A DNA stretch of 32,000 nt from assembly GCA_030149205.1 (NCBI GenBank), contig JASBSB010000001.1, positions 420,001-452,000 of the forward strand, in the 5' to 3' direction. The notes beneath the pieces were generated by a model. The model made no database searches and was not told the DNA's origin. It worked only from the letters and a program-made list of their open reading frames with translations. A program made the translations under genes and the position numbers. This stretch comes from Candidatus Heimdallarchaeota archaeon (GTDB lineage: Archaea > Asgardarchaeota > Heimdallarchaeia > Heimdallarchaeales > Kariarchaeaceae). Below, piece after piece: positions 3,875 to 25,374 of this stretch; the first letter of the stretch is position 1, and the number at the start of each line of letters is the position of its first letter.

Positions 3875-6800
3875 ATGCAACAACTAGCCGAGTCAGAGAT
3901 TTACCATTCAAAACACAAGGTTCGTGTAATCACAGCAACCTCATTATTCGACGGTCATGATGCCACCATTAACATCATTAGGCGTATTCTACAAGATTCA
4001 GGAGCTGAAGTTATTCATTTAGGGCATAACAGAAGTGTTTGGGATGTAGTTAAAGCTGCAATTCAGGAGGATGCACAAGGAATCTGTGTCTCAAGCTATC
4101 AAGGAGGTCACATGGAATATTTCAATTACATGAGAGAACTGTTGGACAAGCTAGGAGCAAGTCACATTAAGATTTTTGGAGGGGGTGGGGGAGTTATAAT
4201 TCCTGATGAAATCAAAAAACTGGAATCTTCAGGGATACAAAAGATATTTTCTCCAGATGATGGTAGGATACTAGGGCTTCAGGGTATGATAAATGTTATT
4301 TTAAAAGAGTGTGATTTTTCTACACCCTCAATAGATGTTCTCGACTCAAACAAAATTGAGGACACTTGGAAGAAGACTGCAAGTTTGATATCCTTAGCAG
4401 AAAGACAAAAATTTAACCCAACTTCGCAGAGTAGAGCCATCCCTGTAATTGGGATCACTGGAACAGGTGGAGCTGGAAAATCTTCTCTGACGGATGAGCT
4501 TGCCAGACGTGTCTCAATTGACTTTCCGAAAATTAAAATCGCAATTATATCAATTGACCCATCTAAGAGAAAGACAGGAGGAGCCCTGTTAGCAGATAGA
4601 ATTAGGATGAACAGTTTGACTCATTCTGACATGATTTATATGAGGTCTTTAGCGACAAGAAGAGCTAATTTTGCAACTAGTGAGGCTGCATTAAGTGCGA
4701 TTGACATCTGTAAGGAGATGAATTATGACCTTATTATTTTAGAAACATCTGGGATTGGACAGTCAGGGTCAGAAGTCGTGGATATTGCAGATATCTCAAT
4801 ATATGTAATGACAACTGATTATGGTGCATCAACTCAGCTTGAAAAAATTGATATGATTGATTTTGCTGATTTTATTGTTATAAATAAATTTGAGCGACAG
4901 GGATCACTTGATGCACTAAGAGATGTTAGAAAGCAATACAGAAGATCTAGAAAGATTTTTGACACTGAAAAATACCCAGATGAAACTCTTCCAGTTTTTG
5001 GGACAATGGCAAGCCAATTTAATGATGCAGGAGTTAATTCACTATATTTAGCTTTGTTGGGTCTAATCAATGATCGATTCGATAATTTAGAGTTTATTTC
5101 AAATTTGGATAAGGAACATCAGTTACCAACCGGCATCTCTACCCGTAATGTTATAGTCCCACCGGAACGAGTTAGATATCTCTCAGAAATTTCAGAGACG
5201 ATTCGGGGTTATAAAAATCAAGCGAAAGAACAAGCAGAACTAGCAAGAGAGTTATGGCATCTTATCTCCGTTAGAGATAGGTTGGTAAACACTAGTCAAC
5301 CTACGGAGCTTATTAACTTATTAAACAAAGATATTGACGAATTATTTACCAATTTAAACTCAGATGTGGCTGACATCATTGATAACTGGAATGAGGTAAA
5401 ATCCAGATATCAAAATCCAGAGTTTGTTTACAAAGTTAGAGGGAAAGATATTAAGGTGAAAACATCAACAGAGTCACTTTCACACCTACAAATCCCTAAA
5501 GTTGCCCTCCCAAGGTACAAAGATTGGGGAGAAATTGTATCCTGGACTTTATTAGAAAATGTTCCTGGGGAATTTCCCTTTACTGCAGGAGTTTATCCAT
5601 TCAAGCGAACTCAAGAAGACCCAACAAGGATGTTTGCTGGTGAAGGCCCACCAGAGAGAACAAACAAGAGATTTCATTATTTATCTGATGGTCAACCTGC
5701 TGCAAGATTATCTACAGCATTTGACTCAGTAACATTGTATGGTGAGGATCCAAATGAGAGGCCAGACATTTTTGGGAAAATTGGAGAGAGTGGAGTTTCT
5801 ATCTGTACAATCGAAGATATGGAAAGACTGTATGCTGGATTTAATTTGTGTTCTCCTAAAACATCAGTCAGTATGACAATAAATGGCCCTGCTCCGATAA
5901 TGCTTGCATTTTTCTTCATGACTGCCGTCCGTCAGCAGGTCAGAAAATGGGTGGTTGACCAAGGGCTGTTAAAGCCAATGGAGGCATTTGTGGTCTCAGG
6001 TGATGGGAGGGTTGGTTACGATGTTCATCTGGGAACTAGTCTAACTGTTGAAAAAAATCTCACAAAGAGTTGGGAGGAAATCAAGAAACTGGTACCCAAC
6101 GATATCTATGAGGAAATTAAATCTCAAACATTTACCTCTGTTAGAGGCACAGTACAGGCAGATATTCTTAAAGAAGATCAAGCACAAAACACCTGTATAT
6201 TTTCCACCTTCTTTTCACTGAAGATGATGGGGGATATTCAAGAATATTTTGTGAATCATAATGTGAAGAATTACTATTCTGTATCAATCTCTGGGTATCA
6301 TATTGCTGAGGCTGGAGCAAACCCTATAACCCAGACAGCATTCACACTTGCTAACGGATTCACATATCTAGAGTATTATAGAGCTAGAGGGTTGGATGTA
6401 GATAAATTTGCACACAACTTCTCATTCTTTTTCTCAAATGGTCTTGACCCAGAGTACAGTGTCATAGGTAGAGTCGCTAGAAGAATCTGGGCTGTGGCTT
6501 TAAAACACAAGTATAATGCAGGGAAGAGAAGCCAAATGTTGAAATACCACATACAAACAAGTGGAAGAAGTTTACATGCACAAGAGGTTGATTTTAATGA
6601 TATTCGAACGACCTTACAGGCACTTTTGGCAATTTATGACAATTGTAATTCACTTCACACAAATGCATATGATGAGGCTGTCACAACGCCTACAGAGGAA
6701 TCTGTGAGAAGGGCAATGGCTATTCAGTTAATTATTAACAGGGAGTTTGGGTTAACCACAAATGAAAATCCCAACCAAGGTTCATATATTATTGAAGAAC

Positions 6801-7246
6801 TAACAGAATTGGTAGAAGAAGCCATTCTATCTGAGTTTGACAGGCTAACTGAAAGAGGGGGGGTGTTAGGAGCAATGGAAACCCAGTATCAACGTGGTAA
6901 AATACAAGAAGAGTCATTATATTATGAGACGTTAAAAGCAACTGGAGACCTTCCGATTATGGGAGTAAACACTTTTTTGAACCCTCATCGTAAGAGCAAT
7001 ACACTTGAGGTCCCCTCACTAATTCGAGCATCACACGAAGAAAAAACACTTCAAATCAATAGATTAAGAGAATTTCAGTCAAAACATAAGGATCTAGCTG
7101 TTGAGTCCCTTAAGCAATTACAAAAAGTATCAATAGAGGGTAAAAATATTTTTGAAGAGCTACTTCAAACAGTTGAGAGCTGTAGTCTTGGTCAGATAAG
7201 CAAAGCATTGTATGATGTAGGTGGAGAATATAGAAGAAATCTATAG
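3875..7246 (+). CDS. icmF: Fused isobutyryl-CoA mutase / MeaI GTPase chaperone (AdoCbl-dependent)
   Basis: N-terminal B12-binding domain (FDGHD, SSYQGGH, FGGGGG), then a MeaB-type G domain ([21 protein letters not shown]), then a mutase barrel ([44 protein letters not shown]). Phe and Gln sit at the positions of MCM Tyr89 and Arg207. Confidence 0.96.
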
Positions 7247-18788: not shown

Positions 18789-20930
18789 TTGGTACAATCA
18801 TTGTCAATTCAAATTGAAAATATTAGTAGCAGAATTCAACAATTTCTAATAATAGTTTTAGCGGGAGTCTATACCACAATACAGTCCCTTGTTCCTTCAA
18901 CTATTAGAATACTTCCGGGTTTGGATATAACAAATCAAGGATTTGGACTATTTGTTCTTGCAACAGGGGCAATGATATTTGGAAAGGGAGTTGGAGCAGG
19001 TTCCGCAGGTTTAGGTGTGATTTTTGACCAGTTTAAAGTTGTTCTTGATGGGTCCTCTGTCCCTAACTTGAATCTTGGGCTATTGGTCGGAACTGTAAGT
19101 TTAGGACTAGGTGCATGGTTAACAGGATTCCTTGAAAACGGTCGTACTGGAGATTTTGTTTCTTCAAGTTTTAAAGGTGTCATGTCAAAGGCGGAAATTC
19201 TTAAAGTGGGGAGAAAAACCTTGGTTTCAATAGTTGGCTTAGGAATCACCTCAAACTTTACGTATGCGTTTGGAGCTCAATTAATAGAAGGTGGAAACAT
19301 CTTTGGAGCTATTACCTATTTTTTGACAACTTTCTTAGAAGACAGCTTTGTGCTCATATTAACAGTTCCAATATCACTTTTAGCATTTGATATTACAAAT
19401 GTTTACAATGAAAAAAAATCAAATTTTATAGAGCAATTAAATCAAAAGGTGGATTATAAAATCGAGGTTTCACAATCTGCTGAAATTTTGAAGGTTTCGT
19501 TACCTGAGACTTCCTTAGTTCAAGGGAAGTGGACACCAGTTGTGGTTGAGTTTATGAATCCATCAACTGAAAAAAAGCAATATCAGGTTGAAGCAGTATT
19601 TACCACAAAATTTTATCCTCACACTGACAAAACACCTCAACTCAAACCTGGTGAGGGATGGAAACAGACATTTTTCGTTCTCCCCAGTAAGCAGAGTTCA
19701 GTTTACGGGAGAATTAGGATAACCAGTAACAACGACATACAGTACAAATCATCAAACCCTGATGAGTCAATTGTTGAAATTACCGCTAATTCAAGAGACC
19801 CCAACACCATAATTGGTTCACTAATAGGCTTAAGTGGTGTAAATTTTGGGATTCTTGGAATTTCTGTTATTTGGGATCAGGTTTTATCATTTTTTTCTAA
19901 CCCTGAATTGCTCTTATCTCAATTTCAATCTACGGTTTCAACATTGTCTGAAGTAATTTTTGCTGAAATCTTATTATTCATTTCATTGTTATTATGGACA
20001 GTGTTTCGTACAAAGAAGGAGAAAACCCAATTTTCACAAAAGATTAGTTTTTCGAGTGATTTAGATGACCAGCTAATTCAATCGCTTAAGGCAAATTCAA
20101 TAAGGATAATGCTCAAAAAATATGGAAATGGGCTAACAAGCGTTTTTCGGGTGCTTATTGGAATAAGCAGTTTAGGGTTAATCATATTTTTGGGAAACCA
20201 GGGGTATCAAGTAATTACAAATCCCACGTACACTGTTACTAACCAAGAGTTGCTTTTTGGTTTAATTTTAGGGATGATAATTTCTTGGGTGCTCGGATTC
20301 AGAGGTTTACAGATAATTACTGAGATGAATCTCAAAAATGCAGCATATAATAATAACCCTGATGACTTTGTTCAAGAGTTCAAACCTGTTGGGGATATAA
20401 ATGAAAATGAACCCAATAATTTTCTATTTAAGGTGATTAATACTTCTGATTTACCAGGAATAAGAATCAAATTTGAATCAACAGATTCAATTGCTCCACC
20501 TTTAATAGAACTACACATAGAACCTGGTGAGATAGCTCAATTTAAGGTCGTAGTCACTCCTAATACAGGAAATCATAAAATTTTAGCATTAGCTTATCCG
20601 CTGTTTGATAAAAAGAAAAAATATGTGAATTTTGATGAATCTGAACCTTTTGCTAAACAGGAGCTTAGTTTTGCAGTAAATTCAAAAGGAGTCCTGGGGA
20701 TGTCAAAAAAACAACAATCCCAACTTAAAGGTATTACTGCTTTGTTGACTGGTTTTACTGGATTACTGGCAGTTATCAATCAGATAGTCCCAGGAAGCAA
20801 TAATTTTACGATAATTCTGGATAACTTACCTGCGCTACTGAGTTTGCAGATCCCGATTTTGGGAGCATATTTCAGCTTGAATTCTACGCTAAAAAATTGG
20901 CTAATTAAATCAGGAGAAAATGACTTATGA
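18789..20930 (+). CDS. Polytopic membrane protein: ECF S-component-like N-terminus plus two Ig-like beta domains, each followed by TM helices
   Basis: About 5-6 TM helices in the first 200 aa, with FGKGVGAGSAGLG resembling the FGPxxG motif of S components. Two soluble segments share an N.S...L/I.PGE...F pattern. ATGA overlap with the next gene. Confidence 0.7.
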   Translation: MVQSLSIQIENISSRIQQFLIIVLAGVYTTIQSLVPSTIRILPGLDITNQGFGLFVLATGAMIFGKGVGAGSAGLGVIFDQFKVVLDGSSVPNLNLGLLVGTVSLGLGAWLTGFLENGRTGDFVSSSFKGVMSKAEILKVGRKTLVSIVGLGITSNFTYAFGAQLIEGGNIFGAITYFLTTFLEDSFVLILTVPISLLAFDITNVYNEKKSNFIEQLNQKVDYKIEVSQSAEILKVSLPETSLVQGKWTPVVVEFMNPSTEKKQYQVEAVFTTKFYPHTDKTPQLKPGEGWKQTFFVLPSKQSSVYGRIRITSNNDIQYKSSNPDESIVEITANSRDPNTIIGSLIGLSGVNFGILGISVIWDQVLSFFSNPELLLSQFQSTVSTLSEVIFAEILLFISLLLWTVFRTKKEKTQFSQKISFSSDLDDQLIQSLKANSIRIMLKKYGNGLTSVFRVLIGISSLGLIIFLGNQGYQVITNPTYTVTNQELLFGLILGMIISWVLGFRGLQIITEMNLKNAAYNNNPDDFVQEFKPVGDINENEPNNFLFKVINTSDLPGIRIKFESTDSIAPPLIELHIEPGEIAQFKVVVTPNTGNHKILALAYPLFDKKKKYVNFDESEPFAKQELSFAVNSKGVLGMSKKQQSQLKGITALLTGFTGLLAVINQIVPGSNNFTIILDNLPALLSLQIPILGAYFSLNSTLKNWLIKSGENDL

Positions 20931-22726
20931 GTAAAAAACTTCTTTCTGTACTAACCTTAACCTTTATTCTGTTGGGAGCAGGGTTTACATATTATTCATT
21001 TACTACCCCAACAATTGACTTAAGTCCAGAATTTGCGGCTCAGGCAATTCAATTAACTTCTGGAGCGAACTTACTCTTTGGAGGAAATGCTTTGAAACTA
21101 CTAAACAAATACGAGGGAATTGGAAAAATAACCAAGGATTATCTTACTGATGTATTTAAATTTAATATGAAAGGGAAAAAGAACACACTTTATTACCAAA
21201 ACTTAAACAATTTGATTCCAGGATATTCCAATCCCCCTAACTTTGCATTTGACCCCACATACAATGAAAGCATATCTACTCAAGGGTTAGGATTCAACAT
21301 TGCACCTTCATCTTTTATTAAAAGTTATCAAAACAAATTCCTCTCAACACCGATTGAAAGTACAGATCCTTTATCAAAGATCCCAGATAGTATGAAAGAA
21401 AATATAAATAAAACATCAAGACTGTTTGATGTTTGGAAACAAACTTTAACAGGAAATACCTCCTATTTTAATTTTGTATCAACTTCTGGCTACTCATTAA
21501 ATTACCCGTTTTTCTCTCTCCCTAAGATTTATGATGGAAGAAATGAATCTTTCTACAACTCTGCGATAATTGGACAAAAAGATCTTGTAATAGTGATTGA
21601 TAGATCTGGATCATTGAACAAAGATACTTTTACTGCACTTAAGAACTCAATTAAGTCAATCATAAACACCCTATCTCCATCAGACAGATTCAATATTTTA
21701 ACATTTTCAGATCATGTTTCTGTTTTTTCGAATAGTTTGAGCAGTGCAACTATTAGTACAAAAATTTTAGCAGAGAAATATATAGATAGAATTAGATTAG
21801 GTGGGCTTTCAGACATTGGGATGGGATTTACTTCGGGATTAAAAATTCTGACAGATTTTGGATATCAGAGGAATAAGCGATTGTTTCTCACCTTTTCAGA
21901 TGGAAAACCTACTTCAGGTGTAATTCAAAATGATTCATTAATCCAAGAGATTGTTAGTGCAAATGGTGGAGCTAAAGCAACCCCAATATTTTACGGGATT
22001 ACCAAAAATCCTAATAATGAAATGTTTACCTCCTTGGCAAATCAGATGGGAGGGTTCTATATTAACACAAATACCACGAGTAAACTACTTAACTTGGTTC
22101 CCAACTATAATAAGCTAATAAACAATATTACTTCTGAAAACAAAATTTGGAGTACTCCCTTTGTAAGCTCTATTAACCACAATATTTTCTCTAACTTAAG
22201 TTTTGCAATAAATTATGCTGGTCAACACTTTGGAGTTTTTAACATCCAAGTTAAGCTATCTGAATTTTTGGAGAGTTTACAGAAGACAAAGTTGTATAAT
22301 TCCCAGACTAACTTTATAATCAACACTGGAGGATACACCTTTGCTCATCCTATATTTGAAAGTCTCCAATTAAAAGACAGAATTACAAACAACCTTCAAC
22401 AACCAATCGAAAATTTTACGCTAACCTCGGCCGATTTCAAAGGGATGTTGACGGATTTAGCCAAAAATAACTATAAGACCAAAATAGTTCAGAGTAATAA
22501 TTTAACTAAGTTTGTGATTTCCTTATCACCGCTTGGACAAACAGGATTGGTTTCAGGAACTATCATCCCATTAACTGAAATAATCAACCAAAACATCTTA
22601 GGTTCACTTTCTGGTCACAGACCAAATTTTGAAGGAATGTATCTTTCCTTTGCTATTGCTGTAACCGTTGGAATAATTATCATTTTGTTAAGTAGCAGAA
22701 TTCTGAAGGAGGAAACAAAACAATGA
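20927..22726 (+). CDS. dCache domain with an inserted VWA (MIDAS) domain; alpha2delta/CACHD1-like membrane-anchored ectoprotein
   Basis: N-terminal TM/signal, then NYP...YDGRNESFY (Cache), [12 protein letters not shown]...GLSD...FSDG (complete MIDAS), WSTPF...FGVFNIQV...[13 protein letters not shown] (Cache continued), a C-terminal TM and a roughly 10-residue tail. Many NxS/T sequons. Confidence 0.85.
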   Translation: [599 protein letters not shown]

Positions 22727-25374
22727 ACAATAATGTAGGGAACAATGACCCAGAAGAGAACAATAAAACTGAACCCAAAGGTAAAAAAATTGAAGCCTCA
22801 TCAGAAGGGGAAAAGATTGATGAAACTACAGAGGAGCCTTCAAAACAAAATGCTGGAATCGAAACTAATACAAACGCTTCTTCAGAACCTCTTGACAGTT
22901 CAGACAGTAATACAGAAACGATAAAAGACTCACCTATAATTAGCGACACTAACCAACCGACTGATTCGAAGAAGGATGTAAGCAAGTTAGATCAAGAACA
23001 TGATAATGAAGAAAAGAATCAAACTGAACTTAAGGGAGGGGATGAGAGTACTCCATCATCACAGAATGATAAAAACTCCACTGGAGGGTCGTTCTTACAA
23101 AGCCTTGGTTCAGTAGGCAATATTTTACCTTTTCAGGTTAGAAAGTCAAAGCCTGAAGATTTAAGTCCGCAGGATCAAATAGAGGCTGCGATTAACGAAA
23201 CAAAACAAAATGTACCTAAATTCTACTCAAAGACAAATTTTTCAGAAAAAACCAGGTTTCAGAAATTCAGAATAGCTACATATAAGTCTCTCTCTCTCTC
23301 GTTAATACCATTATTGATTATCTTGATCGGATTATCTTTTAATTTGCATGCGATTCAAGGAACAGTCTTTGTCGACAACACACGTCAATACTCGACAAAC
23401 TCTATTCAATATTCTAACAAATTAGCAACGCAACTAAATAATGAATACTCAAGCTTCATAAGTTCTATTGAGAGTGAATTTCGGAACCTAAAATTTAACA
23501 TTGCGAGCGATCCAACAACCTATGATATCCAAAGTTTTTCGGTTAATGAAACCGGTGCCACTCCGAACCCTCAGTTCAGCACGAAATATAACAAGATTGT
23601 TGATTATAGTGTATCTGCTTGGCAATTGTTAGCAAAACACAATAGAACGAAATCTGTAAATGATACAGTACAACTAACTGCCCAATTTGACCCATACTTT
23701 ATGACCACATACAATAAAGTTAAGGAAATTCTCTGGATAAGATTAATTCTCGATAACGGGGTTGTACGGACTTACCCTCATTTACCAGATAATTCCTCAA
23801 ATACTAACTTCCAAGCACTTCAGTGGTTCAATAAAACTAAATCAGCATTCAGTTTCGATACATTTGTAACAGGCCTAGAAGTTGATAATATTACATCAAA
23901 ATTGATTTATTCAATAACAAGTCCATATTTTAAGAATGGAATAAAATTGGGTGTTTTGCAAGCTTCAATTGATGTAGTAGAACTAAAACAACAATTTAAT
24001 TTGTTAAAGGGTAAAGGGATTACCCCCTTTTTGATGACAAAGGCTGGCCAAGGAGTCTATCATCCGAAACTTTCACTTAAGCAATTTGGTTGGAATAATA
24101 ATGAGTTAAACCAGAGTATCTTAAAAATTGACCCAGTTATCAATGAGATAAATCGAACTAAAAATATCATTGGGTTAACAAACCAATTAAATGGGAGTGT
24201 TTCAGTAAATACTGTAGGTGTAACATATTGGATATTTCCGATTACTAACACTGGTCAAGTTTTAGGACTTTACTTAGAACTTTCAACCACTCCAGTAAAG
24301 TCTCAATTCGATAGTTTTCAATTACTTGCACTCCCAATTGGAGTAGCTGTTATCCTTCTAGTTTCTATTGTTGGATTACAATTACAATCTGGATTAATTA
24401 AAATAGATAATCTTGAAAAATCGCTTAAAAGGTTTAGAAGGGCTACTAAAATTGAAGGGATATCAAATAGATTAAGGGATACCCTTACTCAAATGAGTAC
24501 AGAAAATATAATTGACAAAACTGGATCAAGGGCAGAGAAGTTAATCAAAGAGAAAGGAAAAGATGCAAGAGAAAATGTGGAAGGTGAAATTTCAAGAGGT
24601 TTGGAAAAGGTGTCTTCAAACATTGATAAAGGTAAATCTATGATCCTTGAAGAGGAAGATACCAATCTTGTTGAGGTAATTGAAAAGGATAAAATTTTGA
24701 CAAAAATATTAGAATCGCTGGAAGAAAATCCGTACTTATTCCTTCAAAACAGGATAAAAATGAAGAATATCAATATTGAGGATATAAAAAATGAAAACTA
24801 TTCCTCTTTAAAAAGCCTAGTTACAGGTGCAGAGAAGCTTTTAATAGCATTAATTGTAGGGCGAAGAATTGATATAGCCAAAATTTCTGATTCCTGTGAG
24901 ATGAATGGAGAACAGCTAAGCGGGTTTTTCACCAGCCTCCCTCTAAATCTTGGAATCACGTTGTCAGAAGATCAAAAATCGATCATGGTAGAACAAAAAT
25001 TGTTATTGGAAAACATTGAATCATTTACTTTGTACTTCAATAAATTCCTCAAAAACCCTAAAAAATACCTTAAACTGTCAACTAGTAATAATGTTGAAAA
25101 AATAGATAAAGTTAAATCTCAAATAGAAAAGTTCTATTCCACAATCCAAGAAAGAAACTCCATTTCATTAGATGAACTTTCAGAGATATTTCAACTCCAT
25201 AAGAAACAAATAATTGAAATTTTTAGTCAGTTGAGTTCCGACAAAAAATTTGGAATTAATTTAGAAGAAAAAACTTTGAGTATTGATGAAGATAAATTCA
25301 AATCTAACCTCTTGGACTTTGTTAAAAAATTCACTTTGATAGTAGTCACAAGATACTCTTTTATCTCCGCTTAA
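22723..25374 (+). CDS. Two-TM dCache receptor with an acidic disordered N-terminus and a cytoplasmic coiled coil plus two winged-helix-like repeats
   Basis: TM1 (LSLIPLLIILIGLSF), then LDNGVVRTYP...QWF...SITSPY...GVLQASID...FLMTKAGQGVYHP (dCache), then TM2 (LLALPIGVAVILLVSIVGL). No HAMP/MCP/HisKA motifs were recognised in the tail. Confidence 0.8.
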   Translation: MNNNVGNNDPEENNKTEPKGKKIEASSEGEKIDETTEEPSKQNAGIETNTNASSEPLDSSDSNTETIKDSPIISDTNQPTDSKKDVSKLDQEHDNEEKNQTELKGGDESTPSSQNDKNSTGGSFLQSLGSVGNILPFQVRKSKPEDLSPQDQIEAAINETKQNVPKFYSKTNFSEKTRFQKFRIATYKSLSLSLIPLLIILIGLSFNLHAIQGTVFVDNTRQYSTNSIQYSNKLATQLNNEYSSFISSIESEFRNLKFNIASDPTTYDIQSFSVNETGATPNPQFSTKYNKIVDYSVSAWQLLAKHNRTKSVNDTVQLTAQFDPYFMTTYNKVKEILWIRLILDNGVVRTYPHLPDNSSNTNFQALQWFNKTKSAFSFDTFVTGLEVDNITSKLIYSITSPYFKNGIKLGVLQASIDVVELKQQFNLLKGKGITPFLMTKAGQGVYHPKLSLKQFGWNNNELNQSILKIDPVINEINRTKNIIGLTNQLNGSVSVNTVGVTYWIFPITNTGQVLGLYLELSTTPVKSQFDSFQLLALPIGVAVILLVSIVGLQLQSGLIKIDNLEKSLKRFRRATKIEGISNRLRDTLTQMSTENIIDKTGSRAEKLIKEKGKDARENVEGEISRGLEKVSSNIDKGKSMILEEEDTNLVEVIEKDKILTKILESLEENPYLFLQNRIKMKNINIEDIKNENYSSLKSLVTGAEKLLIALIVGRRIDIAKISDSCEMNGEQLSGFFTSLPLNLGITLSEDQKSIMVEQKLLLENIESFTLYFNKFLKNPKKYLKLSTSNNVEKIDKVKSQIEKFYSTIQERNSISLDELSEIFQLHKKQIIEIFSQLSSDKKFGINLEEKTLSIDEDKFKSNLLDFVKKFTLIVVTRYSFISA
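23227..23240 (+). repeat. (TC)7 dinucleotide tract inside the dCache receptor gene, at the start of TM1
   Basis: Seen directly (TCTCTCTCTCTCTC, encoding SLSLS). Confidence 0.8.

Follow-up and report, generated by a model that had tools for sequence, protein, structure and literature searches.

Does the architecture of the alpha2delta subunits of calcium channels, in which a VWA domain is set into a Cache domain, occur outside eukaryotes, and if so, how is the prokaryotic form related to the eukaryotic one? Gabapentinoid drugs act on alpha2delta subunits, whose odd architecture has so far been treated as a eukaryotic invention. The question was raised by a gene in a 32,000-nucleotide stretch of DNA (the window; positions 420,001 to 452,000 of contig JASBSB010000001.1) from a Candidatus Heimdallarchaeota genome (GCA_030149205.1), for which a reading of the sequence alone (hereafter the sequence-only reading) had proposed an alpha2delta/CACHD1 architecture. 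The gene carries a prokaryotic version of this architecture, of which all previous reports come from eukaryotes, and its host belongs to the archaeal class nearest to these; the version may be ancestral to the eukaryotic form. The gene product is likely one of two subunits, the VWA-bearing one, of an extracellular double-Cache receptor in this Heimdallarchaeial (Asgard) archaeon.

The open reading frame (ORF) list of the window and direct reading of the sequence gave a protein of 599 amino acids (aa; 20927..22726, plus strand). Hydropathy scanning placed one transmembrane (TM) helix near each end (Table 1), with the first half of a dCache_1 domain, a VWA domain and the second half of the dCache_1 domain between them and 11 residues remaining as a tail; coordinates and order of parts are those that the sequence-only reading had given. 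Pfam matched the VWA domain (residues 219-387, E 4e-14) and the second half only of dCache_1 (profile positions 106-225 of 240; residues 403-518, E 8e-5, below the curated cut-off). VWA_N and VGCC_alpha2, which the sequence-only reading had also named for this search, gave no Pfam match, and in place of VWA_N the first Cache half is evidenced by the structure and by the family sub-profiles described below. The dCache_1 is complete, with stalk helix, distal module and proximal module, and one dCache and the VWA domain together account for all 599 aa. Pfam gave no match to a VIT domain N-terminal to the VWA domain, Pfam and NCBIfam gave none to a transmitter domain, and of the marks of a prokaryotic dCache_1 receptor the protein has the dCache_1 between two TM helices, with a tail of only 11 aa after it. 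It contains no cysteine, as is the case across the archaeal family to which it belongs.

A HMMER search against all PDB sequences returned alpha2delta-1 of the voltage-gated calcium channel (CaV) first (E 2.6e-9), with ITIH1 at 1.9e-6 and CACHD1 at 7e-5. The alignment to alpha2delta-1 pairs query residues 160-327 with chain residues 185-367, beginning about 55 residues ahead of the VWA domain, and it reproduces the motif pairs that the sequence-only reading had given for the human protein. An AlphaFold2 model of the 599-aa protein, built on a 13-sequence family alignment, had a predicted local distance difference test score (pLDDT) of 83.9 and a predicted template modelling score (pTM) of 0.70. 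When this model was searched against the PDB with Foldseek, as the sequence-only reading had suggested, the top 14 matches were without exception chains of alpha2delta-1 or CACHD1, with E values of 2.7e-27 to 1.8e-16 and about 570-630 columns aligned. Since the matches to alpha2delta-1 at 2.7e-27 are followed by a fall to VWA-only matches, the first being ITIH1 at 6.6e-13, the resemblance of the modelled fold to alpha2delta-1 is far beyond chance. In the structural search, bacterial dCache domains aligned over 231-239 of about 240 residues while residues 216-405 were skipped, and a search of the AlphaFold database (AFDB) clusters returned a single family member, all other matches being eukaryotic alpha2delta, CACHD1 and VWFA proteins.

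In alpha2delta, the VWA domain lies between alpha4 and beta4 of the distal Cache module as an insertion that interrupts the motif YxxxxRxWY | Y..D (Gumerov et al. 2022, PMC8915833). To locate the archaeal insertion, three separate family sub-profiles (Cache-N, VWA and Cache-C) were built, and these matched eukaryotic proteins collinearly and with abutting boundaries: position ~184 of Cache-N runs directly into VWA position 1, and Cache-C positions 2-6 begin 6-12 residues past the VWA end. Direct alignment of family members of the Hodarchaeales type (Hod-type) with protist proteins was free of gaps at the N-junction and nearly equal in linker length at the C-junction, as in archaeal P0018 (YDPRIRPWYVGAVTG-AKDVVLIMDVSGSM) versus protist P0084 (FDPRVRPWYVGAATG-AKNVVLIMDISGSM). 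With the VWA domain excised in silico, both the archaeal and the eukaryotic groups aligned gap-free to amino-acid sensors of the PctA/PctB type, placing the insertion point between RPWYxxAxx and xxW(T/S)xPYxD. The archaeal insertion loop is the alpha4-beta4 loop of the distal module, the same as that of the eukaryotic dCache_1-VWA module to within a residue. The VWA domain is therefore neither appended to the Cache domain nor placed in a different Cache loop, either of which the sequence-only reading had held would speak against its proposal. Hod-type members share 30-36% identity over 280-380 residues with the protist class that carries a single dCache_1 with a VWA insertion, the P0018 protein reaching 36% over 285 aa (E 8e-41) with P0034 from Arcella; the identity of P0018 to the window protein is 24% (E 4e-42), so that P0018 is no nearer to the latter than to Arcella.

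The host genome (3.3 Mb in 12 contigs, 93.5% complete, 2.8% contamination, archaeal small-subunit (SSU) rRNA) belongs to the class Heimdallarchaeia, and full-length family matches were found in 12 of the 400 Asgard genomes searched, all in that class, the remaining matches covering the VWA domain only. By taxonomic family, the gene was found in 7/11 (f1), 1/3 (f4), 5/22 (f5/g14, the B3_Heim group), 0/31 (f2) and 0/12 (f6) genomes, and the family gene tree follows genome taxonomy. Public relatives are assigned to Candidatus Heimdallarchaeota B3_Heim and Candidatus Hodarchaeota, and their paralogues are named 'Candidatus Hodarchaeales archaeon' at NCBI. When 1.84 billion representatives were searched exhaustively, about 15 full-length relatives came out at E < 1e-30, followed by VWA-only matches together with a tier spanning both sides of the VWA domain, in which every placeable protein is eukaryotic (Arcella, an MMETSP protist, Bodo saltans, Branchiostoma alpha2delta-3 and Lingula CACHD1). 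Two members on long metagenomic contigs, P0091 and P0167, were considered as non-eukaryotic candidates and rejected, their neighbours being eukaryotic (Tim17, C2-kinase and ALG-type glycosyltransferase; SPX and EXS), and two bacterial VWA-Cache candidates whose match began before the VWA domain (L035 and L062) proved to be VIT-VWA proteins without Cache. No bacterial family with a VWA-split dCache was found among the best 150 matches from the roughly 1.84 billion representatives, the AFDB clusters and the candidates checked, and nesting of the window protein in a widespread family of that kind, the other outcome that had been held to speak against the proposal, was thus not observed. VWA-only candidates dominated the word-indexed searches, both that with the protein and that with the family alignment, and these contributed nothing further. 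The family is small and, across the 400 Asgard genomes covered, restricted to Heimdallarchaeia.

Within the host genome, the 599-aa gene gave the only Pfam dCache_1 match, ordinary dCache_1 receptors being absent by this measure, and no Ion_trans (PF00520) channel gene was matched in the 93.5%-complete assembly, in which the controls were matched. Three other copies of the gene stand out. At L015:7932-13149 (JAJDCR010000069.1), in a metagenome-assembled genome (MAG) labelled Planctomycetota, a VWA-dCache gene, a dCache paralogue and a gene for a 694-aa Ser/Thr protein kinase are all translationally coupled on a 179-kb contig of uniform GC content (0.39), and the copy nests inside the Hodarchaeales-type clade. 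Misbinning was considered and found unsupported, since the flanking ATPase of the type II secretion system (T2SS) type has no close homologue in 81 Heimdallarchaeia genomes; probably the cassette was transferred laterally into a bacterium and coupled there to a kinase output. In a Hodarchaeota MAG (L013:1808-3595), the VWA-dCache gene is split into two ORFs of 195 and 370 aa by a frameshift, a pseudogene state or a sequencing error, and the copy in genome G079 contains one in-frame TGA.

How the archaeal and eukaryotic modules came to share their insertion was approached with trees of the separate parts. In the Cache-only tree, the eukaryotic proteins (support 99/98), the VWA-bearing archaeal proteins (100/99) and the archaeal VWA-less paralogues (100/98) each formed a clade, and the three groups came together, weakly (81/76), relative to the sampled bacterial receptors. 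A profile of the eukaryotic Cache part alone ranked the Hod-type members top (114 bits), with the archaeal paralogues at 87-109 and PctA-type receptors at 58-60 bits. Judging from the sequences, it is quite likely that a single insertion event gave rise to both the archaeal and the eukaryotic module, because the insertion point is identical, the linkers are equal in length and no other lineage with a VWA-in-dCache insertion appeared among the best 150 matches from the roughly 1.84 billion representatives.

Several results weigh against one insertion and favour convergence, in which Heimdallarchaeia and the eukaryotic stem would separately have put an ITIH/VIT-type VWA domain into the same permissive loop of an amino-acid-sensing dCache_1, leaving the likeness to alpha2delta as an architectural analogy. 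The best Cache tree joins the VWA-bearing Heimdallarchaeial proteins with their VWA-less paralogues (96/89) and leaves the eukaryotes outside, so that a single insertion needs a clean VWA loss or gene conversion between the neighbouring paralogues; holding the VWA-bearing archaeal and eukaryotic proteins together nevertheless costs only 4.9 log-likelihood units (lnL) and is not rejected by the approximately unbiased (AU) test (p-AU 0.28). The VWA-only tree puts the Heimdallarchaeial VWA domains among VIT-VWA proteins, apart from the eukaryotic Cache-VWA clade, and here a joint clade costs 29.5 lnL, which in an AU test on 77 rows again falls short of rejection (p-AU 0.098). A profile of the eukaryotic VWA domains did not single out the Heimdallarchaeial ones (ranks 8-111 of 131), and the VWA entry motif and exit helix were rejected as synapomorphies, the junction motifs on the VWA side being common to VIT-VWA proteins. 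The N and C termini of VWA domains also lie close together, which makes them frequent inserted domains, as in integrin I domains. Furthermore, the bacterial outgroups were sampled with a Heimdallarchaeial query, so that closer bacterial relatives of the eukaryotic Cache may be missing from the Cache tree. The separate trees of the N-half and C-half of the Cache domain were unresolved, and in neither did a short free search outscore the constrained joint tree. Given this, the agreement of the insertion point to within a residue, linkers that are equal or nearly so at both junctions, and the absence of any further VWA-in-dCache lineage from the best 150 matches, which suggests that the loop is no easy, recurrent target, we regard convergence as unlikely. 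As a further source of outgroups, Pfam dCache_1 searches of five bacterial genomes gave nothing at 1e-10. Two proteins with Pfam VWA-only matches, P0137 (657 aa) and P0081 (314 aa), fell inside the VWA clade of the eukaryotic Cache-VWA proteins and also topped the ranking by the eukaryotic VWA profile (178 and 166 bits).

Alternatively, the module may have passed from a eukaryote to an archaeon, a protist-type single-dCache+VWA gene being gained by an ancestor of some Heimdallarchaeia and duplicated there, with loss of the VWA domain giving rise to the downstream paralogue. The patchy occurrence within the class (12 of about 80 genomes, and none in f2 and f6), the broad distribution in eukaryotes back to LECA, their last common ancestor (PMC8915833), and the clade of VWA-bearing proteins with their paralogues, as expected from duplication after transfer, are in keeping with such a route. 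A recent transfer is countered by four features: the archaeal clade stands as sister to the whole set of sampled eukaryotic sequences and is not nested in them; it has 0 cysteines, compared with 18-20 in the eukaryotic proteins; its members have the two-TM topology of prokaryotic receptors and an operon setting; and both the gene tree and the paralogue tree track genome taxonomy across at least three families. Transfer from eukaryote to archaeon is thus improbable, an old exchange being possible on the strength of the patchy distribution. An assembly or binning artefact, with eukaryotic or bacterial DNA misplaced in an archaeal MAG, can be dismissed in spite of the family member in a MAG labelled Planctomycetota, since the gene lies inside a 995,517-base contig of the largely complete host genome, with uniform GC content and start/stop overlaps with both neighbours, and the locus has orthologues in 11 further genomes of the class.

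The sequence-only reading had called the protein a candidate eukaryotic signature protein and a possible ancestor-like form of the alpha2 chain. In its fuller form, this would mean that the module arose in Heimdallarchaeia before eukaryogenesis, as a subunit of a heterodimeric two-dCache amino-acid receptor, and was inherited vertically by eukaryotes as an unrecognised eukaryotic signature protein, with the two-dCache layout of alpha2delta resulting from fusion of such a pair. A natural archaeal fusion (P0008, described below) indicates that a pair fusion of this kind can happen. The proposal is plausible, but the Cache tree prefers the VWA-less paralogues as sisters of the VWA-bearing proteins, with the eukaryotes outside on weak support, the VWA tree does not join Heimdallarchaeial and eukaryotic VWA domains, and the AU tests reject neither alternative; we put it forward as a tentative and rather doubtful scenario.

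The next question was what the protein might bind. The metal ion-dependent adhesion site (MIDAS), which had been reported as complete, is so by sequence: besides D225, S227 and S229 in the DRSGS motif, at the position originally given for it, the protein has S295 (nucleotides 21809-21811; in GGLSD, where most relatives have T) and D325 (nucleotides 21899-21901; within FSDG). The DxSGS motif and D325 were invariant across the 13 family members. By contrast with this, the amino-acid motif of the dCache_1AA subclass (Y121, R126, W128, Y144 and D173 in PctA numbering) is degraded, the window protein having Y202, E207, F209, F412 and Q441 in these places. The stretch Y202-D-G-R-N-E207-S-F209-Y210 closes the first Cache half, and W408-S-T-P411-F412 and G436-V-F-N-I-Q441 occupy the places of the canonical W-T-x-P-Y and G-V-x-G-x-D. 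Four of the five positions are changed throughout the window genus, and its downstream paralogue has lost the motif too, while Y..R.W..Y..D is intact, with all five residues, in the Hod-type members and their paralogues. Both subunits of the Hod-type pair therefore probably sense amino acids, as far as their motifs tell. In the window genus, where pairwise identity of the family proteins is only 35-37%, indicating a fast-evolving lineage, loss of the motif with retention of the MIDAS may reflect a shift from amino-acid sensing to MIDAS-dependent binding.

Whether the protein acts with a partner, as the sequence-only reading had expected for want of a cytoplasmic signalling domain, was addressed through its neighbours. 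The 599-aa gene shares ATGA stop/start overlaps with both the upstream and the downstream gene, and a homologue of the downstream 883-aa protein lay directly downstream in 12/12 related loci. This protein is a paralogue of the Cache part, matched by the family profile at positions 5-213 (about 1e-43) and by BLAST in both halves. In P0008/P0154 (ENA metagenome contigs, 993 aa), the two ectodomains are naturally fused between only two TM helices (residues 3-21 and 912-930), with a soluble helical linker in place of the inner TM helices, an arrangement that, by the Rosetta-stone argument, points to the two ectodomains working jointly on one side of the membrane. The short cytoplasmic tail of this fusion has two CPQC pairs, as in a zinc ribbon. 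Complex prediction for the 599-aa protein with the 883-aa paralogue gave an interface score (ipSAE) of 0.73, compared with 0.01 for the best control, the mark used being one that 58/80 solved complexes and 2/110 mismatched pairs reach; the runs agreed in at least 91% of contacts, the partner had a pLDDT of at least 78, and the predicted interface follows both TM pairs and the stalk helices. Since dCache homodimers are among the solved structures and the two chains are paralogues, the predicted complex shows likeness to the canonical dCache dimer and is no proof of a heterodimer. Counting against pairing, the pass may reflect the solved homodimers, paralogues can pass, and homodimers may form instead. 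Taken together, the strictly conserved and translationally coupled paralogue, the natural fusion and the complex prediction support the expected need for a partner, and we lean towards pairing of the 599-aa protein with the paralogue encoded downstream, the TM and stalk helices serving as contacts as in dCache receptor dimers.

Within this arrangement, the window subunit would most likely bind, in a metal-dependent way, to an acidic residue of a protein ligand, a role suggested by the loss of the amino-acid motif (E207, F209, F412 and Q441) with the MIDAS kept. Candidate ligands of the MIDAS are the upstream 8-TM protein or an external surface. The downstream 883-aa paralogue is proposed to be both heterodimer partner and output subunit: the ligand state would be passed to it, as the sole subunit in the window lineage whose cytoplasmic tail carries winged-helix-like domains. 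This cytoplasmic part, present in the partner only, consists of a long helical stretch followed by two helix-strand-helix-helix-strand-strand units (residues ~700-880). Its sole sequence match in a profile search against the PDB was weak (ArsR-type NmtR, E 0.007), no usable Atlas match was found, and a broad structural search returned matches to the Cache ectodomain instead. The winged-helix-like units (window 24820-25362) have a pLDDT of 85-90 and are conserved within the genus, and partner residues 1-142 are disordered, acidic and rich in Ser/Thr. In the Hodarchaeales-type loci, neither subunit has a cytoplasmic tail, and a conserved leucine-rich repeat (LRR) protein is encoded directly after the pair; where both subunits are tail-less, it may be the missing third component. 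The LRR protein is about 490 aa long (L011:11155-12639, L012:3107-4576, L013:5099-6553 and L014:4854-6341), is 48-59% identical between loci and has a weak Prok-RING_2 match at its N-terminus.

The features of the operon are collected in Table 1.

Table 1. Parts of the VWA-dCache operon and of its 599-aa protein, with positions in the window
Feature	Position	Strand	Basis
Upstream 713-aa polytopic membrane protein, 8 predicted TM helices, first gene of translationally coupled operon	18789..20930	+	ORF, ATGA overlap, TM scan
dCache_1 protein with inserted VWA domain, 599 aa, two TM helices, 11-aa cytoplasmic tail	20927..22726	+	ORF, Pfam, HMMER, model, Foldseek
N-terminal TM helix / signal anchor, residues 5-23	20939..20995	+	Hydropathy scan; model helix 3-26; in predicted interface with partner TM1
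Stalk helix and first half of membrane-distal Cache module, residues 34-215	21026..21571	+	Model helix 34-78 and strands after it; Cache-N sub-profile 30-214, E 1e-61; PctA-type dCache_1 alignment
Inserted VWA domain, ITIH/VIT type, residues 216-402	21572..22132	+	
MIDAS motif D225-R-S227-G-S229	21599..21613	+	Direct sequence reading; family alignment
Second half of distal Cache module and membrane-proximal module, residues 403-556	22133..22594	+	Pfam dCache_1 positions 106-225; Cache-C sub-profile, E 4e-54; alignment
C-terminal TM helix, residues 570-588, then 11-residue tail	22634..22690	+	Hydropathy scan; model helix 568-598; in predicted interface
Downstream 883-aa paralogue: disordered N-terminus, TM 190-208, complete VWA-less dCache ectodomain (~220-525), TM 534-552, cytoplasmic helical region, two winged-helix-like units (~700-880)	22723..25374	+	

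NCBIfam assigned none of the three operon proteins to a family beyond VWA-only similarity. The upstream 713-aa protein has two soluble stretches besides its predicted TM helices and no Pfam, NCBIfam or Atlas relative, and a homologue adjoining the pair is kept in L004-L009 only, which belong to the order of the window genome. Elsewhere in the window (3875-7246), a 1123-aa fusion combines a B12-binding domain, a MeaB-type GTPase and methylmalonyl-CoA mutase, which is the layout of IcmF-type fused isobutyryl-CoA mutases.

In a literature search, no paper joining Asgard archaea or Heimdallarchaeia with alpha2delta, CACHD1 or a VWA-split dCache was found. The only explicit published scenario that was found has the Cache domain transferred from bacteria, followed by a VWA insertion that 'probably occurred in LECA' (PMC8915833). 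The survey behind it probably overlooked the family, whose split Cache scores 22.7-29.4 bits against a Pfam dCache_1 cut-off of 45. With the family present in Heimdallarchaeia, the module may have originated before eukaryogenesis, or else its presence there reflects a rare exchange between a eukaryote and an archaeon, and if vertical inheritance is the true reading, the published scenario of bacterial transfer and insertion around LECA needs revision. The family also provides a simple, cysteine-free, two-subunit model for the coupling of ligand binding in a Cache pocket to a MIDAS a few residues away, which would be directly testable in the Hodarchaeales-type members, whose sequences keep the complete amino-acid- and gabapentinoid-binding motif.

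Compared with known systems, the alpha2delta/CACHD1 architecture claimed by the sequence-only reading stands in so far as a VWA domain is inserted in the first, here the only, dCache_1; family membership does not follow. The 599-aa protein is not a member of alpha2delta/CACHD1 and not a calcium-channel subunit: its dCache_1 is single, a VGCC_alpha2 region and cysteines are lacking, and no Ion_trans channel gene was matched in the genome. Among solved structures, alpha2delta-1 (PDB 8fd7_D, 7mix_D and 5gjv_F) is its best match in both sequence and fold, and the two share the order dCache_1(N)-VWA-dCache_1(C), the insertion loop, a perfect MIDAS and the lack of a cytoplasmic signalling domain. 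They differ in that the first dCache_1 of alpha2delta is nested in a second one (VGCC_alpha2, PF08473), whereas the window protein has no PF08473 match; in that the alpha2delta chains are disulfide-linked, whereas the window protein is without cysteine; and in that alpha2delta undergoes alpha2/delta cleavage and carries a glycosylphosphatidylinositol (GPI) anchor, in place of which the window protein has its C-terminal TM helix. Alpha2delta binds CaV alpha1, for which the window genome has no Ion_trans gene. CACHD1 (PDB 8s7c_A and 9eq6_A) has two dCache_1 domains, of which the second holds its amino-acid motif (PMC8915833), as well as a cytoplasmic tail, and binds Frizzled/LRP6, compared with one dCache and an 11-aa tail in the window protein.

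The bacterial sensors PctA/PctB, Mlp24, Mlp37 and Tlp3 have in common with the window protein the topology of TM helix, dCache_1 and TM helix and a Cache domain that aligns gap-free once the VWA domain is excised, and the Hod-type relatives match them in the full Y..R.W..Y..D motif, which is degraded in the window genus. Such receptors have no VWA insertion and possess a cytoplasmic transmitter (methyl-accepting chemotaxis protein (MCP), kinase and others), unlike the short tail found here. In VIT-VWA/ITIH proteins, the VWA domain follows a VIT domain, whereas in the window protein it is embedded in Cache without VIT. Proteins with a single dCache_1 and a VWA insertion occur in protists and invertebrates (Gumerov et al. 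2022, PMC8915833), and it is this class that the window protein matches as its proper counterpart. Protist members (Arcella intermedia A0A6B2L1C9 and Bodo saltans CUG92613) share the 30-36% identity with Hod-type members across both junctions. From them, the window protein is set apart by its archaeal origin, an N-terminal TM anchor in addition to the C-terminal TM helix, its place in an operon with a VWA-less paralogue, the lack of cysteines throughout its family, and the loss of the amino-acid motif in its genus.

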